A stretch of 64,000 nt of DNA, from assembly GCA_037481835.1 (NCBI GenBank), contig JBBFKW010000003.1, positions 160,001 to 224,000 on the forward strand, written 5' to 3'. The DNA is from Desulfosoma sp. (GTDB taxonomy: Bacteria; Desulfobacterota; Syntrophobacteria; Syntrophobacterales; DSM-9756). A program made the position numbers and the translations under genes. The notes below the pieces were generated by a model. It worked only from the letters and a program-made list of their open reading frames with translations, was not told the origin of the DNA and ran no database searches. Each line of letters opens with the position of its first letter. Within the stretch, counting starts at the first letter, position 1. Below are positions 23,278 through 32,208 of this stretch, piece after piece.

Positions 23278-24354
23278 CTACTGGGGGGCGCGGACCCAAA
23301 GGGCCGCGCCGACGGCGGCGAAAAGAACGTTGGGAGCCCAGACCCCTACGGCGACGGGAAGCATTTCGGAGCGGGCGAAAGAGGCGCCCGTTTGAAAAAG
23401 CACCAGGTAAAGGAATGTGAGGCCCAAGCCCATGGTGATGCCGAGGGCGATCCCGCTCCGGTGTCCCAGGTGGAGGCTCAGGCTCACGCCGATGATCCCC
23501 AGGATGACGGCGGCGAAGGCCGTGGCGACCCGGGTGTGGAGTTCCACCCGGTAGGGGACGGCGTTGTAGCCTTCATCCCCAAGTTTTCTCGCGTAGACGT
23601 AAAGATCGTCCCACCGGAGATCTTCCGGTAGCGTTGCCGCCACGGCAAGGTCTTTGGGTTCCAACCTCAAGGGCACATCCATGGCTTGGAAGCTGCGATG
23701 CCGTGCCGTGCCCCCTTCCCATTCCAGGACGGTTCCCTTTTCCGCCCGCCATCCCGATCCGCTCCATAGCACGCGCTGCGCGTCCAGGCGGCGGCGCAAA
23801 CGAAAGTTATCATCCAGGGAATACAGCGAAACCCCCTGAAAAACCCGGGCTCTGGCATCATAGGTCCGGGCCTGCAGGAAAAAGTCGTCGCCCCGGTACC
23901 AGACGTTTTCCTGGACGAAACCCAGCGCGGTCCCTTTCTTGTCGATCTTTTCACGCCAGAGGGTTTCGGCCTGATGGCTCAGGGACCGTCCCAGGGTTTC
24001 CCCCGCTGCGAAGGTCACCAGGGCGAGCCCCACGGAAGCGGCCAGCACCGGGCCGGCATAGACCCAGGCTCGAAGCCCCGCGGCGCGAAGGGCGATGATT
24101 TCCCGGTTTCGCTGAAGCAGCCCGAGTCCGATGAGGGAGGCGAGAAGGACGCCCATGGGGATGCCTTGGATGAGGATGGCGGGCACCTTGTAGGCGAAGT
24201 AGAGGACGGCGTCCGGGGCGGCCGCCTTTTTTTCGATGATGTCGTCCAGCCGTTCAAAAAAATCCACCACGAGGTAAATGCCGCCGAAGCCGAACAGGGC
24301 GAGCCCGAAAACGGCGGCGAAATGGCGCAGCACGTAGCGGGTGATGATCTTCAT
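23278..24354 (-). CDS. lptG: LPS export permease LptG
   Basis: YjgP/Q family (REIIALRAAG; VWAPNVLF); paired with lptF. Confidence 0.85.
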   Translation of the reverse strand: MKIITRYVLRHFAAVFGLALFGFGGIYLVVDFFERLDDIIEKKAAAPDAVLYFAYKVPAILIQGIPMGVLLASLIGLGLLQRNREIIALRAAGLRAWVYAGPVLAASVGLALVTFAAGETLGRSLSHQAETLWREKIDKKGTALGFVQENVWYRGDDFFLQARTYDARARVFQGVSLYSLDDNFRLRRRLDAQRVLWSGSGWRAEKGTVLEWEGGTARHRSFQAMDVPLRLEPKDLAVAATLPEDLRWDDLYVYARKLGDEGYNAVPYRVELHTRVATAFAAVILGIIGVSLSLHLGHRSGIALGITMGLGLTFLYLVLFQTGASFARSEMLPVAVGVWAPNVLFAAVGAALWVRAPQ

Positions 24355-25439
24355 CGCCGATGCGCCTTTCCCCAGAGAAAGAGGGCCAGGGATCCGGTGG
24401 CTGCGTTGGGGAACCAGATGCCTGCGGCGGGCGGCACGAGTCCCTGTTCACCCAGCGCGTTTCCGGCGGAAAGGAGGATGTAGTAGGCGAGAAAGAGGGC
24501 GATGCCCAGGGTGATGCCGCCCATGCGCCGCCCCTGGGGAAAGAGGACGCCGAAGGGGGCGGCGGCCAGGCCCAAGACGAGGCAGGCGAAAGGCAGGGCC
24601 AATCGCTTGTGCCATTCCAGGGCGTAGCGCCGATCCTGGGTTTGGACCAAGGCGCGCTGCAATTCGTCCATGGTCATTTCCCCTTTTTTCCACACGGTTT
24701 CCGAATCCACCCCGAAAAGGGCGTCGATGGATAGAACGAGGTCGTAGGTCTGGAAGGTGATCGTCTGGCTCGTCTTGAGGTCCGATCCCATTCGCGAGAG
24801 CATGCCGTCCTGGACCTGGATGACCACTTCCTTGCCGTCGGCGCGTTCCCTGAGGGCGGCTCGGCGGGCTGTAATGGTCACGCGCGTTCGGGGGTCTCGG
24901 GCGTCGTGGATGAGCACCCCGCGGACGGTTTGTTCCTGAGCGTCCACGTGGTCGAAGAAGAAGACCATGTGCGGGACCGTGTCGATAAAGCGCCCTTCGC
25001 GCAGGAGGGCCGGGATGACGGCGCGGCCCAGGGACTTGAGGGTCGTCTTCAAGTGACGGTTTGCGGTTGGCAGGAGCCGGGTTGACGTGTAAAAGGACAA
25101 GGCGGTGAAGGCCAGGGCGAGGGTGAGCACGGCCGGGGCCATCTGTCGGAAGCCGATGCCGGCGCTGCGCATGGCGGTGATTTCGTTGTCGGCGTTGAGG
25201 CGCACGAAGGCGAGCACCGTCCCGATGAGACCGGCCATGGGCAAGGCGTACAAGACGAGTTTGGGCAGGGCCAGCCCCATGACCGTGACGACGACGGCCG
25301 GAGAGACCGAGGCGGCGGTGAGGTATTGGAGGAACTGCATGAGCCGGCCGGTAATGAGAATCATGAGCAGTCCGAAGAAGCACAGCGTCGCCGGCGTCAG
25401 CTGTTCCATCACAAGATACCGGTAAAGAATCCAGCCCAT
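24351..25439 (-). CDS. lptF: LPS export permease LptF
   Basis: RLNADNEITAMRSAG, EWHKRLALPFACL and WFPN. Confidence 0.85.
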   Translation of the reverse strand: MGWILYRYLVMEQLTPATLCFFGLLMILITGRLMQFLQYLTAASVSPAVVVTVMGLALPKLVLYALPMAGLIGTVLAFVRLNADNEITAMRSAGIGFRQMAPAVLTLALAFTALSFYTSTRLLPTANRHLKTTLKSLGRAVIPALLREGRFIDTVPHMVFFFDHVDAQEQTVRGVLIHDARDPRTRVTITARRAALRERADGKEVVIQVQDGMLSRMGSDLKTSQTITFQTYDLVLSIDALFGVDSETVWKKGEMTMDELQRALVQTQDRRYALEWHKRLALPFACLVLGLAAAPFGVLFPQGRRMGGITLGIALFLAYYILLSAGNALGEQGLVPPAAGIWFPNAATGSLALFLWGKAHRR

Positions 25440-25499
25440 GGGCTTCCTCGGACGTTCGGCGAAAGGGCGCCTCCCCGATTTTCCGGGGGCGGCGTTTGC

Positions 25500-25581
25500 C
25501 TTGGGGTTCGCTGCGCTCACCCCTGCTTACGGGTTATGAGCTCCCCGAAAGGGAGTCGGGGTGAGCGAAGCGCCCCCCAAC
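25500..25581. repeat. Degenerate inverted REP doublet between lptF and dgt
   Basis: REP(-) CTTGGGGTTCGCTGCGCTCACCCCTGCTTAC and REP(+) GGGAGTCGGGGTGAGCGAAGCGCCCCCCAAC, about 20 bp apart. Confidence 0.75.
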
Positions 25582-25616: not shown

Positions 25617-26696
25617 ATGCCCAAAGGGACGGACACAACACGTGCGGATTTTGCCACCGTGCGCCAATGGCTGGAAAACCGGGAAATTCACATGCTCGCC
25701 CCCCAGGCGCAAAAGAGCGTCGCCACCCGTGGGCGCCTCCATGCCAATGATCCCGAATGCCCGCTGCGCACGGCCTATCAGCGGGATCGGGACCGCATCG
25801 TCCATTCCAAGGCCTTCCGGCGGCTCAAGCACAAGACCCAGGTGTTCCTGTCCCCCACGGGCGACCACTACCGCACGCGCCTCACCCACACCCTGGAAGT
25901 CTCCCAAATCGCCCGCACCATCGGCCGGGCGCTCGCCCTGAACGAAGATCTCATCGAAGCCGTGGCTCTGGGCCATGACCTGGGCCACACGCCCTTCGGC
26001 CACGGCGGCGAACGGGTCTTGAACGAGATCCACCCGGGCGGGTTCCGCCATCATGAGCAGAGCCTGCGCGTGGTGGATTCCCTGGAAAAAGGAGGCCGCG
26101 GGCTCAACCTCACTTTCGAAGTTCGGGACGGTATCGTCAAGCATTCCAAGGGAAAGACCCATCCCATCCTGACGGAACCCGGCCGCAGGCCCGTGACGCT
26201 GGAAGGGCAGGTGGTTCGGGTCGCGGACATCGTGGCGTACCTCAACCACGACCTGGATGACGCCATGCGGGCCCATGTGCTGTCGGCCGACGAGCTTCCC
26301 TCATCTATCCGGGACCGCTTGGGGGACACCCATGCCCGCCGGATCCACACGCTGGTGGAAGACGTCATCACGGCAAGCCTGGAAGGCGGTCTGGAAGAGA
26401 TCCGCATGAGCGAGCCCATGCTGCGCCTGGTGGAAGAGCTCCGAGCCTTTCTCTTCGAAAGGGTCTACGAATTGGACACCATCCGCCGGGAATTCGAACG
26501 GGCCCGAAAGATCATCGAAGACCTCTACACCGTTCTCATCAAGGACAAGGACCTGTTCCGGAGTGAAGTGGGCCCCCGGGACCCGCGCCTGTCGCGAGCC
26601 CAGCAGGTCTGCGACCACATCGCCGGCATGACCGACCGGTACGCTCTGGATCTCTACAAGAAGATTTTCCTTCCGCGCCCGTGGATGCGCCTGTGA
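25617..26696 (+). CDS. dgt: Deoxyguanosinetriphosphate triphosphohydrolase (HD domain)
   Basis: RTAYQRDRDRIVHSKAFRRLKHKTQVF, RTRLTHTLEV, GHDLGHTPFGHGGE, ADIVAYLNHD and IAGMTDRYA. Confidence 0.95.
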   Translation: MPKGTDTTRADFATVRQWLENREIHMLAPQAQKSVATRGRLHANDPECPLRTAYQRDRDRIVHSKAFRRLKHKTQVFLSPTGDHYRTRLTHTLEVSQIARTIGRALALNEDLIEAVALGHDLGHTPFGHGGERVLNEIHPGGFRHHEQSLRVVDSLEKGGRGLNLTFEVRDGIVKHSKGKTHPILTEPGRRPVTLEGQVVRVADIVAYLNHDLDDAMRAHVLSADELPSSIRDRLGDTHARRIHTLVEDVITASLEGGLEEIRMSEPMLRLVEELRAFLFERVYELDTIRREFERARKIIEDLYTVLIKDKDLFRSEVGPRDPRLSRAQQVCDHIAGMTDRYALDLYKKIFLPRPWMRL

Positions 26697-26846
26697 CGGT
26701 AAGACCTTGGAATCGCTTGACACTGATTTTTCGGCCGTGCTAACGCTTCCGTGTTTTGAAAGGCCCCGCTGCGAGGAAGGGGGGCAAGCCGTGGTCAGGG
26801 CCGCACGCCCCTGTGGGGGCGCGCTCGGGCATGACAAGGAGATGCC

Positions 26847-27950
26847 ATGAAAGATCCCAAGAAACCGGATCGGAAAACGGACGATCGTGCGGCCGGGCAT
26901 GATGATATTCGCGACTTGTTCAAGGACATCGAGGACCTGGACCGATCGGCCGTGGACGGGGAAGACGAAGACGTCCTGGAACTCGATGAAGTGGTGGACG
27001 ATGGCGAGGAGGGCCTCAAGGACCTTCCCGACTTGGAAGACGATCTGGCCGACCTGGCCGATCTGGATGAGGCGGAGCCGGCCTTGGGCGAGCCCGAGCT
27101 CGAGGAATCCCTTTTCGATGAGGAAGTGACGGTGGAATTGGCGCCGCCGGAAAAGGGGTTGGAACGCCCCCGGGAACCGCTCATGGAAGCGGCCGAAGAC
27201 GACGAGACGGCCTTGGAAGAAGATCTGGGAGGGCCGGAAGAAACGCCTTTGCCGGACCTGGAGGACGTGCTGGAGCCGGCGGAGGCCTCGGCGGAAGCCT
27301 TGGAGAGGGAAATCCTGGACGAGCCGTCGGCGGAAGACGAAGGGGACGTGGACGATTTGGGCGAGGCGGAGCCTGAGCCGGAGCCCCTGGAAACCGAGGT
27401 CTGGGATACCGACGAGGAGCTGGAAGCGTTGCTCAAAACCGCCGGAGCGGCCGTGGCGGCCGAAGGGGAACCGGCACTGGAACCGCAAAGGGCACCTGAA
27501 CCGGAGCCTCAATGGGAACAGGAACCGAAATGGCGACCGGAAGCCGACGCACGGGAAGAAGCCGAGCCGGTTTTCGAGGAGCCCGTCACCGAGGAGCAAT
27601 TGCTGCCGCCCGAGAAGGCCGTGCGGTTGGAGGGTGAGGATTTGGAACCGATCCGGGATGTGCCGGCTGCCGAGCGGGCCGTGCCGGACAGTGTGGACTT
27701 GGCGATCTTGGGAGCGGCCGCGGGCGGTGCTGGAGCCGCTGCCGTTTCCACGACAGCAACCGAAAGTGCCGAGGAGGCGATGATGGAAGAACGGCCTGCC
27801 ATGTTCCAACCCATTGTGGAAGTTTTGGAAAAGCGGCTCCAGGCCAGGGTCCAGGCCATGGTGCAGAAGGCGGTCCAGGAACAACTGCCGGGCATTGTGC
27901 GGCGGGTGTTGCAGGAAGAAATCGAGCGGCTTTCCAAGAGCTTGGGCTGA
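26847..27950 (+). CDS. Acidic Pro/Glu/Asp-rich disordered protein with PopZ-like C-terminal helices
   Basis: SD AAGGAG. About 117/367 residues are D/E by hand count. C-terminus LPGIVRRVLQEEIERLSK; ends 40 bp before valS. Confidence 0.75.
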   Translation: MKDPKKPDRKTDDRAAGHDDIRDLFKDIEDLDRSAVDGEDEDVLELDEVVDDGEEGLKDLPDLEDDLADLADLDEAEPALGEPELEESLFDEEVTVELAPPEKGLERPREPLMEAAEDDETALEEDLGGPEETPLPDLEDVLEPAEASAEALEREILDEPSAEDEGDVDDLGEAEPEPEPLETEVWDTDEELEALLKTAGAAVAAEGEPALEPQRAPEPEPQWEQEPKWRPEADAREEAEPVFEEPVTEEQLLPPEKAVRLEGEDLEPIRDVPAAERAVPDSVDLAILGAAAGGAGAAAVSTTATESAEEAMMEERPAMFQPIVEVLEKRLQARVQAMVQKAVQEQLPGIVRRVLQEEIERLSKSLG

Positions 27951-27990
27951 ACAGAAAGGATGCGGGCACGAGGGTGGAGGGATCTTCTTG

Positions 27991-30669
27991 ATGAATCGCG
28001 ACACGTTGCCGAAGGCGTATGAATTCCAGGACGTGGAAGGGCGGTGGGTGACTTACTGGGTGGAAAACCGGTGTTTTCGGGCGGATCCGACGGCGGCCAG
28101 GCCCCCTTTCAGCATCGTCATTCCGCCGCCCAACGTCACGGGGCAGCTCCACATGGGCCATGCGCTCAACAACACGCTCCAGGACATCCTCTGCCGCTAC
28201 AAGAGACTTAAAGGTTTCGAGGTCCTCTGGGTTCCGGGAACGGACCACGCGGGGATCGCCACCCAGAACGTGGTGGAACGGCATATCGCCAAGGACGGGC
28301 TCACACGGCACGATCTGGGCCGGGAAAAATTCCTGGAAAAGGTCTGGGAATGGAAGGAAACCTACGGGGACTACATTATCCGCCAGCTGAAGCGACTGGG
28401 GGCCAGCTGCGACTGGACCCGGGAACGGTTCACGATGGATGAGGGCCTTTCCAGGGCGGTGCGCATCGTCTTCGTCAAGCTCTACGAGGAAGGACTCATC
28501 TACCGCGGCCAGCGCATGATCAACTGGTGCCCCCGCTGCATGACGGCCTTGGCCAACATCGAAGTGGAAGGCGAAGAAATCGGCGGGCGCCTCTATCACA
28601 TCCGCTATCCCCTGGCGGACGGATCCGGGGCTGTCACGGTGGCCACCACGCGCCCCGAAACCATGCTGGGAGATACCGCCGTGGCGGTCCACCCGGACGA
28701 TCCCCGATACCGCCATGTCGTCGGCAAGACCGTCATTGTGCCCCTCGTCAACCGGCCCATCCCGGTGATCGCCGACCCGTACGTAGACCGCGAATTCGGT
28801 ACGGGCGCCTTGAAGATCACCCCCGGCCACGATTTCAACGACTTCGAAATCGGCCGAAAACACGGCCTGGAGGTCATCCAGGTCATCGGGGAAGACGGCG
28901 TCATGACGGCCCAGGCCGGCCCGTACCAAGGGCTGGACCGATACGAATGCCGAAAGAGGGTGGTGGCCCATTTGGAAAAGGGCGGCTACCTCGGGACGGT
29001 GCAGGACCATGTCCACCGCGTTGGGCACTGTTACCGGTGCAAGAGCGCCGTCGAACCCATGCTCTCGCTCCAATGGTTCGTCAAGACGCGCCCTCTGGCG
29101 GATCGGGCCATGGAAGCCGTCCGGGACGGCCGCACCCGCATCATCCCGAAGAAGTGGGAAAAAGACTACTTCCAGTGGCTGGAAAACATCGAAGACTGGT
29201 GCATCAGCCGCCAGATCTGGTGGGGACACCGCATTCCCGCCTGGTACTGCGCCGACTGCCAAGGGACGACCGTCGCTCTGGAAGACCCCAAAACCTGCGG
29301 CAGCTGCGGCGGCACCCGGCTGGAACAGGACAATGACGTTTTGGACACCTGGTTCAGTTCGGCTCTGTGGCCTTTCACCACCATGGGCTGGCCGGAACAG
29401 ACGCCCGAGCTTCAAAAATTCTATCCCACCTCCGTTCTGGTGACGGGCTTCGACATCCTCTTTTTCTGGGTCGCCCGCATGATGATGATGGGCCTTCATT
29501 TCATGAAGGACGTGCCGTTCCGCGACGTCTACGTCCATGCCTTGGTGCGGGACGCCCAGGGGCAGAAGATGAGCAAGTCCAAGGGGAACGTCATCGATCC
29601 CCTGGTCATGATGGACCGCTACGGGACCGACGCCCTGCGCTTTACGCTCACCGCCTTCGCCGCCCAAGGCCGGGACATCAAGCTTTCCGAAGAGCGCATC
29701 GAAGGCTACCGCCATTTCGTGAACAAGATCTGGAACGCCTCCCGGCTTGTGCTCATGAACATCGAAGGGACCGCCCTCCTGGATCGCATTCCCGATCGGC
29801 TGGAGCGCCTCGCCCACCGGTGGATCCTCAGCCGATTCCAGTCGGTGCTGGACGAGGTGGAATCGGCTCTGGAAAACTACCATTTCAACCAATACGCCCA
29901 GAGTCTGTACCAGTTTTTCTGGCATGAATACTGCGACTGGTACCTGGAAGTCATCAAGCCCGACCTCTACGGCGAGGACCCGCAAGCCAAAGTATTGGCC
30001 CAAACCATTGCGGCCACCGTCTTGAAAAATCTCCTCATCCTCCTGCACCCCGTCATGCCCTTTGTCACCGAGGAACTGGCCGAAAGGTTGCCCGGGTCCG
30101 GCGAAAGTCTGGTCCGAGCGGCTTTTCCCGAAAAGGAGCCGTGGCGATCGGATCCCGAAGCGGAAAAGGACATGGGCCTGCTCATGGATGTCATCACCGG
30201 CATGCGCAACATCCGCGGGGAAATGAACATCGCACCGGGGGTTCGCCTCAAAGCCGTGTGCCTATGCCGCTTGGATGCCGAAAAGGATCTTCTGGAAGCC
30301 AACCGGCAGATGCTCGTGGATCTTGCCCGGCTGGAAAGCCTCACCGTGGGGCTGCAGGGACAGATGCCCAAACCCCGGCTTGCGGCCTCGACGGTTTCCG
30401 GCGGCGTGGAAGCCTACGTCCTTCTCGAAGGCGTGTTGGACGTGGACAGCGAGGCCAAGCGGTTGGACAAGGAGATCGGAAAACTCCAAAAGGAGCTGGA
30501 AGGGGCTCGAAAGAAACTTTCCAACGAAGACTTCCTGAAACGTGCCCCCATGGATGTGGTGGAAAAGGAACGGGAAAAGGCGGAACGGCTTGCGGAAAAA
30601 CTTGCGAAACTCCGGGCCAACCGAGACCGCGTGGAAGCGCTGGTGCGCGAAGCCGCCCAAAACGCCTGA
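27991..30669 (+). CDS. valS: Valine--tRNA ligase
   Basis: PPPNVTGQLHMGH (HIGH), KMSKS, DWCISRQIWWGHRIP, and a C-terminal coiled coil. Confidence 0.98.
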   Translation: MNRDTLPKAYEFQDVEGRWVTYWVENRCFRADPTAARPPFSIVIPPPNVTGQLHMGHALNNTLQDILCRYKRLKGFEVLWVPGTDHAGIATQNVVERHIAKDGLTRHDLGREKFLEKVWEWKETYGDYIIRQLKRLGASCDWTRERFTMDEGLSRAVRIVFVKLYEEGLIYRGQRMINWCPRCMTALANIEVEGEEIGGRLYHIRYPLADGSGAVTVATTRPETMLGDTAVAVHPDDPRYRHVVGKTVIVPLVNRPIPVIADPYVDREFGTGALKITPGHDFNDFEIGRKHGLEVIQVIGEDGVMTAQAGPYQGLDRYECRKRVVAHLEKGGYLGTVQDHVHRVGHCYRCKSAVEPMLSLQWFVKTRPLADRAMEAVRDGRTRIIPKKWEKDYFQWLENIEDWCISRQIWWGHRIPAWYCADCQGTTVALEDPKTCGSCGGTRLEQDNDVLDTWFSSALWPFTTMGWPEQTPELQKFYPTSVLVTGFDILFFWVARMMMMGLHFMKDVPFRDVYVHALVRDAQGQKMSKSKGNVIDPLVMMDRYGTDALRFTLTAFAAQGRDIKLSEERIEGYRHFVNKIWNASRLVLMNIEGTALLDRIPDRLERLAHRWILSRFQSVLDEVESALENYHFNQYAQSLYQFFWHEYCDWYLEVIKPDLYGEDPQAKVLAQTIAATVLKNLLILLHPVMPFVTEELAERLPGSGESLVRAAFPEKEPWRSDPEAEKDMGLLMDVITGMRNIRGEMNIAPGVRLKAVCLCRLDAEKDLLEANRQMLVDLARLESLTVGLQGQMPKPRLAASTVSGGVEAYVLLEGVLDVDSEAKRLDKEIGKLQKELEGARKKLSNEDFLKRAPMDVVEKEREKAERLAEKLAKLRANRDRVEALVREAAQNA

Positions 30670-30731
30670 GCCCCCGCCACAGGGCGGACCATCGGCCCCA
30701 CAGACGCCGGGCCCGGATGACGAGGACTTCC

Positions 30732-31283
30732 ATGCGACGCGTGCCCACGGAAATCGCCGACGTGATCCTTTTCGAACCGAAGGTTTTCTCCGACGACCGC
30801 GGGTTTTTTTTCGAAAGCTACAACCGAAAGACTTTCAGCGAGTTGGGCCTTGCCGTGGATTTCGTCCAAGACAACCATTCCCGGTCGCGCCGAGGGGTGT
30901 TGCGCGGGCTGCACTACCAGCTGGCCCCTCGGGCTCAGGGAAAACTCGTCCGCGTGGTCTTGGGCGAAATTTTCGACGTGGCCGTGGATCTTCGACGATC
31001 GTCGCCCTCCTTCGGCCGGTGGGTGGGCGTTTATCTTTCGGCGGAAAACAAAAAGCAGCTCTACGTCCCCGAAGGCTTTGCCCACGGTTTTCTTGCGCTT
31101 TCACCCTGGGCGGAGGTCTGTTACAAAACGACGGATTATTATTCGCCCGAGCACGAACGGTGCCTCCTGTGGAACGATCCCACCCTGAACATCACCTGGC
31201 CTTTGGCCGACGGGGAAACACCGGTGCTGTCCCCCAAAGACGCGCAGGGGGTCGTATTAACCCAGGCGGATCTTTTCGCGTGA
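30732..31283 (+). CDS. rfbC: dTDP-4-dehydrorhamnose 3,5-epimerase
   Basis: DDRGFFFESY, VQDNHSRS...LRGLHYQ, QGKLVRV and VPEGFAHGF. Confidence 0.96.
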   Translation: MRRVPTEIADVILFEPKVFSDDRGFFFESYNRKTFSELGLAVDFVQDNHSRSRRGVLRGLHYQLAPRAQGKLVRVVLGEIFDVAVDLRRSSPSFGRWVGVYLSAENKKQLYVPEGFAHGFLALSPWAEVCYKTTDYYSPEHERCLLWNDPTLNITWPLADGETPVLSPKDAQGVVLTQADLFA

Positions 31284-31338
31284 GGGCATAACTGGTGACA
31301 ACGGGCCGGCAGGGCTTTCGGGGTTTGGGAAAAGAGCG

Positions 31339-32208
31339 ATGAAAACCGTTGTGGTGACCGGCATCTTGGGCCAGCTGGGATGGGAAATGGAACGCTTCGC
31401 GCCTCCGTGGGCGCGCCTTGTGGGGGCGGACCTTCCCGATACGGACATTGCCCGGCCCGACCATGTGGAACGGCTCTTTTCGAAAAACCGGCCGGACGTG
31501 CTCGTCAACGCCGCCGCCTACACCGCCGTGGACCGTGCGGAACAGGAACCCCATGCGGCTTACCGGATCAATCGGGACGCCGTGCGGCTGCTCGCCCAAA
31601 CGTGCGCCCGGTTCGGGACCCACCTCGTGCATCTTTCCACCGATTTCGTCTTCGACGGCACCTTGTCCCGCCCTTACCGGCCGGACGATGCGCCGAACCC
31701 CATCGGCGTCTATGGTGCCAGCAAGAGGGCGGGGGAAGAGGCGGTTTTGGAAATCCTGGGAGACAAAGGGACCATTGTCCGAACCGCCTGGCTCTATTCG
31801 AGCCATGGGGCCAACTTCGTCAAAACCATGCTGCGACTCTACCAAGAGCGCGATGAAGTGCGGGTGGTATCCGACCAGGTGGGGACCCCGACGTGGGCGG
31901 CCAATCTGGCGGATTTTCTCTGGGATCTCGTGGGACGGGAAACCGTGCCGGCGGGGATCTTTCATTTCACCGACGCCGGCGTGGCGTCCTGGTACGATTT
32001 CGCCGTGGCCGTGGAAGAAGAGACTCGGCATCGCCGCACGCAACCCGTGATCATCCGTCCCATCCGCACGGAAGAATATCCAACGCCGGCCCGGCGCCCG
32101 CCATACAGCGTCTTGGACAAGCACTCCGCCTGGGCCCTGTGGGGCCGCCGCCCCGACCATTGGCGGGATGCCCTGCGCCGCATGCTCCGGGAATTGGAAA
32201 AAACGTAA
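31339..32208 (+). CDS. rfbD: dTDP-4-dehydrorhamnose reductase
   Basis: TGILGQLG, NAAAYTAVD, STDFVFDG, YGASK, DQVGTPT and ARRPPYSVLD. Confidence 0.96.
   Translation: MKTVVVTGILGQLGWEMERFAPPWARLVGADLPDTDIARPDHVERLFSKNRPDVLVNAAAYTAVDRAEQEPHAAYRINRDAVRLLAQTCARFGTHLVHLSTDFVFDGTLSRPYRPDDAPNPIGVYGASKRAGEEAVLEILGDKGTIVRTAWLYSSHGANFVKTMLRLYQERDEVRVVSDQVGTPTWAANLADFLWDLVGRETVPAGIFHFTDAGVASWYDFAVAVEEETRHRRTQPVIIRPIRTEEYPTPARRPPYSVLDKHSAWALWGRRPDHWRDALRRMLRELEKT

Follow-up and report, generated by a model that had tools for sequence, protein, structure and literature searches.

Immediately upstream of valS, the gene for valyl-tRNA synthetase (ValRS), Desulfosoma sp. encodes an acidic protein of 367 amino acids (aa) that is probably a member of a PopZ/RomR superfamily, sharing its valS-upstream, co-oriented position and lacking both the receiver domain of RomR and the H1 helix of PopZ. 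The window analyzed here is a stretch of 64,000 nucleotides (nt; C3:160001-224000) within a 3.63-Mb genome that is 99.4% complete. Judged by sequence comparison, homology of the candidate to PopZ and to the C-terminal region of RomR (RomR-C) is highly probable, whereas its action as a self-assembling polar scaffold, argued by analogy, stands at even odds. The tie to PopZ is drawn from four independent lines (the C-terminal helix, an acidic motif in the same order, a disordered acidic body and the position next to valS), and the tie to RomR-type regulators from the same C-terminus and the same chromosomal position. PopZ is the textbook condensate-forming pole organizer and is described as alphaproteobacterial. 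RomR marks the poles as the hub of the polarity switch in Myxococcus and Bdellovibrio; to our knowledge, the two have so far been regarded as polar hubs of separate phyla with no relation to each other. The candidate gene, the parts of its product and valS are located in the window as follows, with model confidence given as the predicted local distance difference test (pLDDT).

26836..26841, + strand: Shine-Dalgarno sequence AAGGAG, 5 nt 5' of the candidate ATG, read directly from the sequence
26847..27950, + strand: candidate gene, ATG start, 367 aa, acidic, mostly disordered, probably a receiver-less PopZ/RomR-type protein
26847..26888, + strand: basic N-terminus MKDPKKPDRKTDDR; family consensus MKKPKRS, with M1 and K5 nearly invariant (alignment A2)
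26901..26945, + strand: low-confidence helix DDIRDLFKDIEDLDR (AlphaFold2 helix 19-33, pLDDT ~50-63), distinct from PopZ H1
26958..27008, + strand: acidic motif GEDEDVLELDEVVDDGE, family-wide, consensus D-E-E-I-I-E-L-D-E-I-V-E; L46 invariant, D40 nearly invariant
27009..27806, + strand: acidic linker rich in Pro and Ala, differing among members in length and sequence (composition by 30-residue blocks, alignment gaps), predicted to be disordered, pLDDT mostly <50
27807..27944, + strand: conserved C-terminal helix, residues 321-366, pLDDT 83-93; P348, V351 and E358 invariant
27846-27941, + strand: core of the C-terminal helix, residues 334-365, aligning with the last PopZ helices (DUF2497) and with RomR-type C-termini
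27991..30669, + strand: valS, conserved downstream neighbor (Pfam tRNA-synt_1, 495 bits; Val_tRNA-synt_C)

A sequence-only reading of this DNA had described a Pro/Ala-rich, Cys-free protein of 367 aa with about 32% D/E, ending 40 bp before valS. The list of open reading frames (ORFs) and a composition count agree: E (76) and D (41) account for 117 of 367 residues (31.9%), K and R together for 8.7%, P for 9.3% and A for 12.8%, Cys is absent, and 40 nt separate the stop codon from the valS ATG (27991). All strings it quoted are present, namely DDIRDLFKDIEDL (residues 19-31), EDVLEL (41-46) and the C-terminal end QEQLPGIVRRVLQEEIERLSKSLG. A word-indexed search returned 16 homologues at 42-77% identity (42-71% when taken over the full length). 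The closest protein relatives are labelled Desulfacinum, Desulfosoma and Syntrophobacteraceae, and one 71%-identical relative bears the automatic UniRef name "DUF2497 domain-containing protein". In a full-length alignment of 23 members, two conserved ends flank a variable acidic middle: the basic MKKPKRS start is followed by an acidic motif with the consensus DEEIIELDEIVE (EDEDVLELDEVV in the window), and the C-terminus follows the consensus IExRL..V..VExRLPxIVRxVLxEEIERLxK. Since full-length homologues exist and both ends are conserved across the aligned members around a variable middle, the candidate is, on the evidence of conservation, a real gene and no chance frame of GC-rich DNA.

The C-terminal helix provides the first link to PopZ. 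DUF2497 (PF10691) was the only Pfam family matched consistently by the candidate family (12 of 23 members at E <= 1), and the window protein matches it end to end, with residues 301-363 lying on profile positions 13-74 of 75. Its last 70 residues likewise align to positions 101-166 of 167 of the NCBIfam model PopZ_fam (NF052660). When 1.84 billion representative proteins were searched exhaustively with the family profile, 143 matched at E <= 0.001; of 138 that were scanned, 27 reached DUF2497 E <= 0.01 and just five small proteins, all from Magnetococcales (P0125, P0128, P0129, P0144, P0151), exceeded the Pfam cut-off, making these the only above-cut-off DUF2497 proteins reached by the family profile. 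Canonical PopZ sequences were obtained by using these five as a bridge to proteins of 146-215 aa with precomputed PF10691 assignments, a set in which source names like "cell pole-organizing protein PopZ" appear and of which the three members rescanned scored 82.7-89.1 bits on DUF2497. Comparison of the family alignment (A4) with 19 canonical PopZ (A7) using hhalign placed the extreme C-termini in register over 33 columns (93.5%, P 2.3e-7), and local alignment of the two C-termini reached 95.0% with a score of 40.7 and P down to 4e-8. Controls that preserve composition stayed far below 40.7: the 150 column shuffles averaged 9.7 and peaked at 20.3, and reversing the alignment gave 12.5. The profile similarity of the C-terminal helices to PopZ that the sequence-only reading had proposed is thus present.

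The same domain was followed through 61 genomes of the class in a six-frame search with PF10691, which gave a match at E <= 1 in 48. In 38 of these 48 genomes, the best match genome-wide was separated from the downstream valS by 30-666 nt, a placement that chance would produce at a rate of roughly 1 in 10,000 per genome (a rough estimate). Forty-two of the 48 best matches are family members, including one locus at a contig end and three relocated members; the other six are unrelated proteins. Within the window's own genome, the top match is the candidate ORF. A second match there (contig C4, L022) is an out-of-frame ORF within a longer gene and was discarded as spurious.

An acidic motif near the N-terminus is the second link. 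Canonical PopZ proteins contain an internal motif of the form DDDVL(D/E)L(T)E(VV), which in P0181 reads EDDDVLELTEVVEEDEP, and the motif of the candidate family gave the best local N-terminal alignment with PopZ (16 columns, 69% identity, score 18.1). No shuffled alignment reached this score (mean 6.3, maximum 11.3; ~148 clean replicates of 150). A strict regular expression finds the motif in 95 of the 107 family proteins of full length, compared with 71 of 2140 shuffles; among complete PopZ ORFs, 25 of 51 contain it, following H1 at a median distance of 44 residues. One canonical PopZ (P0189) carries two copies (DDEEILELDE and PDDVLDLTED), indicating that the motif has been duplicated within PopZ too. 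The remainder of the N-terminus differs. H1 binds ParB and other clients, and its sequence (MEEILASIRRII) is invariant across the 19 canonical PopZ; the candidate has the basic MKKPKRS start in its place. The sequence-only reading had pointed to DDIRDLFKDIEDL as a short N-terminal amphipathic segment and likened the layout of the protein to that of PopZ with its N-terminal helix. The segment exists, although it is conserved in the closest relatives only, the family-wide N-terminal feature being the EDVLELDEVV motif, and an equivalence to H1 is not supported: hhalign gave P 0.42 and the H1 motif was found in 0 of 107 family proteins.

The body between the two conserved ends is, in both proteins, a long acidic, Pro-rich and disordered linker. 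AlphaFold2 with the family alignment gave the candidate a mean pLDDT of 53.9, with 199 of 367 residues below 50, and helix 321-366 was the sole one predicted with confidence, next to two low-confidence helices (19-33 and 189-205). The Atlas model of the window protein had a mean pLDDT of 0.40, and ESM Atlas look-alikes include a DUF2497 cluster with a score of 0.86, which lies below the 0.9 bar and serves as a lead only. Searching solved structures (PDB) with the C-terminal profile returned nothing related (best E 0.058, a TRIM5 fusion). A complex prediction that set the 50-residue C-terminal domain in triplicate, with alignment A4, scored 0.07 against a mark of 0.42, which counts neither for nor against.

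Gene order is the last of the four lines. According to excerpts of published work, popZ is followed closely by valS in Agrobacterium and Caulobacter (PMC5686542), and the Magnetospirillum popZ adjoins a valyl-tRNA synthetase gene (PMC6414705). Among 80 canonical PopZ loci collected here from metagenome contigs, 49 were testable (at least 700 nt downstream), and valS followed popZ on the same strand in 34 of the 49 (42 of 80 overall) at a median estimated gap of ~95 nt. This is the gene order and orientation of the window, and it bears out the earlier statement that popZ often sits just upstream of valS; the arrangement is common though not universal for popZ. For the candidate family itself, valS lies downstream on the same strand, at 4-306 nt, in 19 of 20 loci of the order, the 20th locus stopping at a contig edge. 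The last 85 residues of the candidate match in 33 of 41 related genomes. Phylum-wide, the family C-terminus was found in 18 of 301 genomes, with 14 of the 18 matches adjacent to valS, so the linkage is conserved in relatives. A search for related loci with A4 used one narrow pattern and returned 17 loci. A single lineage of the class (L059, L088 and L093, from genomes G334, G336 and G338) encodes a family member of 407-444 aa with both motifs kept and no valS inside the fetched flanks, the linkage having been lost there.

These observations bear on whether the resemblance to PopZ could be convergent or due to chance, such that any acidic disordered protein with a terminal amphipathic Glu/Arg-rich helix would show it and the valS neighborhood would be coincidental. 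Such an explanation would account for every curated PopZ-model match being sub-threshold, for an aligned stretch that is short and compositionally biased, and for an exhaustive profile search that fell short of canonical PopZ. However, shuffle and reversal controls that keep composition never came near the observed scores, a second motif matches in the same order, canonical PopZ loci have the same order and orientation relative to valS, and the best Pfam match would have to fall beside valS by accident in genome after genome. We regard convergence as very improbable. It is also improbable, by a similar weighing, that the pairing with valS reflects a job in ValRS function or translation, for example as an acidic chaperone, regulator or nucleic-acid mimic co-expressed with ValRS. 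The extreme acidity of the candidate and the short gap to valS, which holds no terminator-like site, would suit such a role, as would a linkage that persists across very distant lineages, which is typical of functionally coupled genes. Conversely, the valS-linked proteins PopZ and RomR have polar-organization functions, and no link to ValRS is noted in the excerpts of the papers describing them (PMC5686542, PMC6414705, PMC11025332, PMC3441718). The lineage mentioned above keeps the gene away from valS, and several RomR-type genes are also unlinked (8 of the best 30 loci, 6 of them testable).

These RomR-type genes occupy the same slot as the candidate. Three family-profile matches contain a receiver domain, and one family of the phylum has, upstream of valS, a gene for a receiver domain, one to six acidic motifs (EDILDLxDIV), an acidic linker and the C-terminal helix, in that order; Response_reg is present in L048, L050, L052 and L057. 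The family C-terminus and those of the receiver-fused proteins match at 98.2% (hhalign, E 4e-14). A profile built from the receiver-fused C-termini (A8) found members in 121 of 301 genomes and 87 of 200 genera of the phylum, nearly always one per genome. Among its best 30 loci, Response_reg was found in 27 (26 above cut-off) and valS lay directly downstream in 22 of 28 testable cases. The C-termini of these 30 loci follow the consensus RExIEKxxWEVVPxLAExLIKEEIxRLK. [quoted passage not shown] The proteins are called RomR-type here because their consensus fits this description. Using hhalign, the Trp-containing RomR-type C-termini matched the window family at 93.4% (P 2.5e-7) and PopZ at 78.3% (P 1.7e-5), and 0 of 100 shuffles reached either score. 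Curated models recognize little in this region, with no NCBIfam match and just 11.6 bits on DUF2497.

Two side observations concern these loci. The receiver-fused protein of L048 (1501-3123, - strand) has six copies of the acidic motif (EEILDLTNIA, EGIVDVADLL, EDILNVADLL, EEIMDLSDIV and others) spaced by 23-26 residues, an array that looks like a recent internal tandem duplication multiplying a putative docking site. At L194 (G223) and L198 (G281), no receiver domain could be detected in frame with the C-terminus encoded by the valS-upstream RomR-type gene: the open frame spans 96 aa in L194, and the ORF of 402 aa in L198 gives no Response_reg match; this state may reflect frameshifts, assembly errors or recent truncations.

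The sequence-only reading had offered, as its alternative, a receiver-less relative of RomR. That receiver-fused RomR-type proteins fill the same slot with matching C-termini supports this suggestion, which is compatible with kinship to PopZ. The candidate shares with RomR of Myxococcus xanthus and Bdellovibrio a Glu-rich alpha-helical C-terminus with a conserved Pro and an unstructured linker before it, as far as the excerpt of PMC3441718 describes them, and it shares with the Desulfobacterota RomR-type proteins the C-terminal match (93.4-98.2%), the valS-upstream slot and, with some of them, the acidic motif. Against the RomR-C features, the window protein retains the Pro (P348) and Glu residues (E357, E358) and lacks the Trp before the Pro, with the Myxococcus RomR-C outside this comparison. 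It gave no Pfam match to Response_reg. Roadblock/LC7 (PF03259, MglB-type) was found nowhere in the window's genome, MglA not having been searched for. By comparison, the domain occurs in all eight genomes taken as receiver-fused (the protein type being assumed for G204) vs two of seven receiver-less genomes, in samples that are small and related.

A stricter version of this relationship holds that the candidate is RomR minus its receiver domain, left over from the MglA/MglB/RomR polarity module in degenerate or repurposed form rather than being a PopZ-like hub of its own. The family C-terminus is indeed nearer to the receiver-fused proteins (98.2%, or 93.4% for the Trp type) than PopZ is to the Trp type (78.3%), the receiver-fused state is the commoner one in the phylum, and the missing Roadblock/MglB would suit a dismantled module. 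Genomes are also known in which RomR lacks the receiver (REC) or RomR-C and MglA/MglB are incomplete, as stated in the part of PMC3441718 consulted. On the other hand, the receiver-less form is maintained with both motifs across the whole order and beyond, which argues for a selected function and against decay. The family also keeps the PopZ-like acidic motif that most Trp-type RomR proteins lack (0-1 copies by regular expression), it lacks the RomR-C Trp, and the receiver domain may have been gained as well as lost. Such a remnant of RomR is unlikely in our judgment, and membership of the PopZ/RomR superfamily as a receiver-less and H1-less form is the reading we favor.

Several results weigh against this favored reading. 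The window protein scores 18.2 bits (E 0.0034) on DUF2497, for which the gathering cut-off is 27 bits, and 9.9 bits at full length or 18 bits over the last 70 residues on PopZ_fam, for which it is 125; none of the 23 family members reaches 27 bits. Full curated PopZ membership is accordingly not supported, canonical PopZ scoring 83-89 bits on the same Pfam model. Only ~33 columns of a compositionally biased helix align, corresponding to the last ~33 of 75 DUF2497 positions, and the Trp of the WLDxxLP segment is missing from the candidate. The exhaustive profile search reached no canonical PopZ at E <= 0.001, its DUF2497-positive matches being the five small Magnetococcales proteins only, and a homologue search with a mixed alignment (A5), covering proteins of 225-2000 aa, gave none either. 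Taken alone, the acidic-motif match is weak (hhalign P 0.015, probability 3%), and H1 is absent from the family (EEIL[AE]SI motif in 0 of 107; family N-terminus against H1, P 0.42). The genomes behind the synteny counts are related to one another, so that the counts do not represent independent events. The RomR-type label, for its part, rests on architecture, the published description of RomR-C and co-occurrence with MglB, with Myxococcus RomR itself outside the comparison. Finally, the C-terminal helix is portable, occurring in a CheX fusion and in two or three repeats, which means that homology at the domain level need not equal orthology of whole proteins.

The other carriers of this helix are as follows. 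P0157 (255 aa) joins a phosphatase domain of the CheX type, from chemotaxis (PF13690, 79 bits), to this helix and ends in LLPALAEQLVRAEIERIKREGL, a fusion that suggests from sequence a transferable module, perhaps one for polar targeting. The Magnetococcales proteins P0125, P0128, P0129, P0144, P0151 and P0163-P0166 (120-128 aa) consist of two tandem DUF2497-type helices above the Pfam cut-off, and P0167 has three copies. The five small proteins used as a bridge share the LPxxAExLVxEEIxRIK helix with the candidate and differ from it in their small size, their tandem helices and their lack of both the long acidic linker and the acidic N-terminal motif.

Set against canonical PopZ as a whole, the candidate has in common the helix core LPxIVxxxLxEEIERL, placed at the extreme C-terminus, with its invariant Pro and EEI-x-R ending, the near-N-terminal acidic D-D-V-L-(D/E)-L motif, the acidic disordered middle and the co-oriented valS neighbor. 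It differs, besides H1 and the profile scores, in being longer than the collected PopZ (367 aa vs 146-215 aa) and in its host, which belongs to the Desulfacinum/Desulfosoma group of the Desulfobacterota. The earlier reading as a distant PopZ homologue or analog is supported in part, by the C-terminus and the valS linkage, and not by H1 or the curated cut-offs.

In the mechanism we propose, the C-terminal helix would drive self-association into oligomers, a role assigned to it because the PopZ C-terminal domain (H3H4) is an oligomerization domain (PMC11025332, in excerpt) and RomR-C alone localizes to the poles (PMC3441718, in excerpt). The multivalent acidic disordered chain could then form a polar matrix that excludes nucleoid and ribosomes. 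The acidic motif may serve as a client docking site, or as a sticker pairing with the basic N-terminus or with the Arg/Lys-rich C-terminal helix. Because no MglB-type partner was found in the genome, the candidate would resemble PopZ in being a constitutive hub, in contrast to RomR, which is switched by a signal. The window's genome encodes ParB, and the lack of H1 leaves no reason to assume a PopZ-style ParB anchor. By analogy with PopZ, we infer that the candidate may function as a phase-separating polar hub.

The remaining neighborhood of the gene is ordinary. A promoter and terminator scan, which covered the gap between the candidate and valS, found nothing above chance. In several relatives, tblastn placed an HD-domain dGTPase-type gene upstream of the candidate's homologues too. 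A 567-aa antisense ORF (26301..28004, - strand) covers the whole candidate gene and could mislead gene callers; the high G+C content (60-68%) is presumed to have produced it. The flanking genes are given below.

23278-25520, - strand: lptG and lptF, upstream of the candidate on the opposite strand (LptF_LptG 274-280 bits), ordinary flank
25617..26696, + strand: HD-domain phosphohydrolase of the dGTPase type, upstream neighbor (Pfam HD and HD_assoc); start at 25617 chosen by the analyst
30717-32208, + strand: rfbC- and rfbD-type dTDP-rhamnose genes, downstream of valS, ordinary flank

No published statement of a link between RomR and PopZ or its domain DUF2497, or of PopZ in Desulfobacterota, was found in the literature searched, parts of which were available as excerpts. 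As far as we have seen, the resemblance to the PopZ domain has already been flagged by one UniRef name and is not discussed in print. A valS-linked ancestor shared by PopZ and RomR is the bolder implication. Under that scenario, which we hold to be slightly favored, PopZ and RomR descend from one ancient valS-upstream gene, RomR being the scaffold plus a receiver and PopZ the scaffold plus H1, with the window protein as a plain form near the shared core of acidic motif, disordered linker and C-terminal assembly helix.

Overall, the analysis illustrates that homology too faint for the cut-offs of curated models can be validated by a conserved place in the gene order. If the relationship between PopZ and RomR is real, the two fields would share a structural core that can be tested in both, by asking whether RomR-C and PopZ H3H4 assemble alike, and it would explain how RomR marks the pole. 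It would also predict polar hubs in the Desulfobacterota, strict anaerobes whose cell biology has hardly been explored. With ~40% of the sampled genomes encoding the module, a PopZ/RomR-type polar matrix would then be widespread in this phylum and no alphaproteobacterial speciality.

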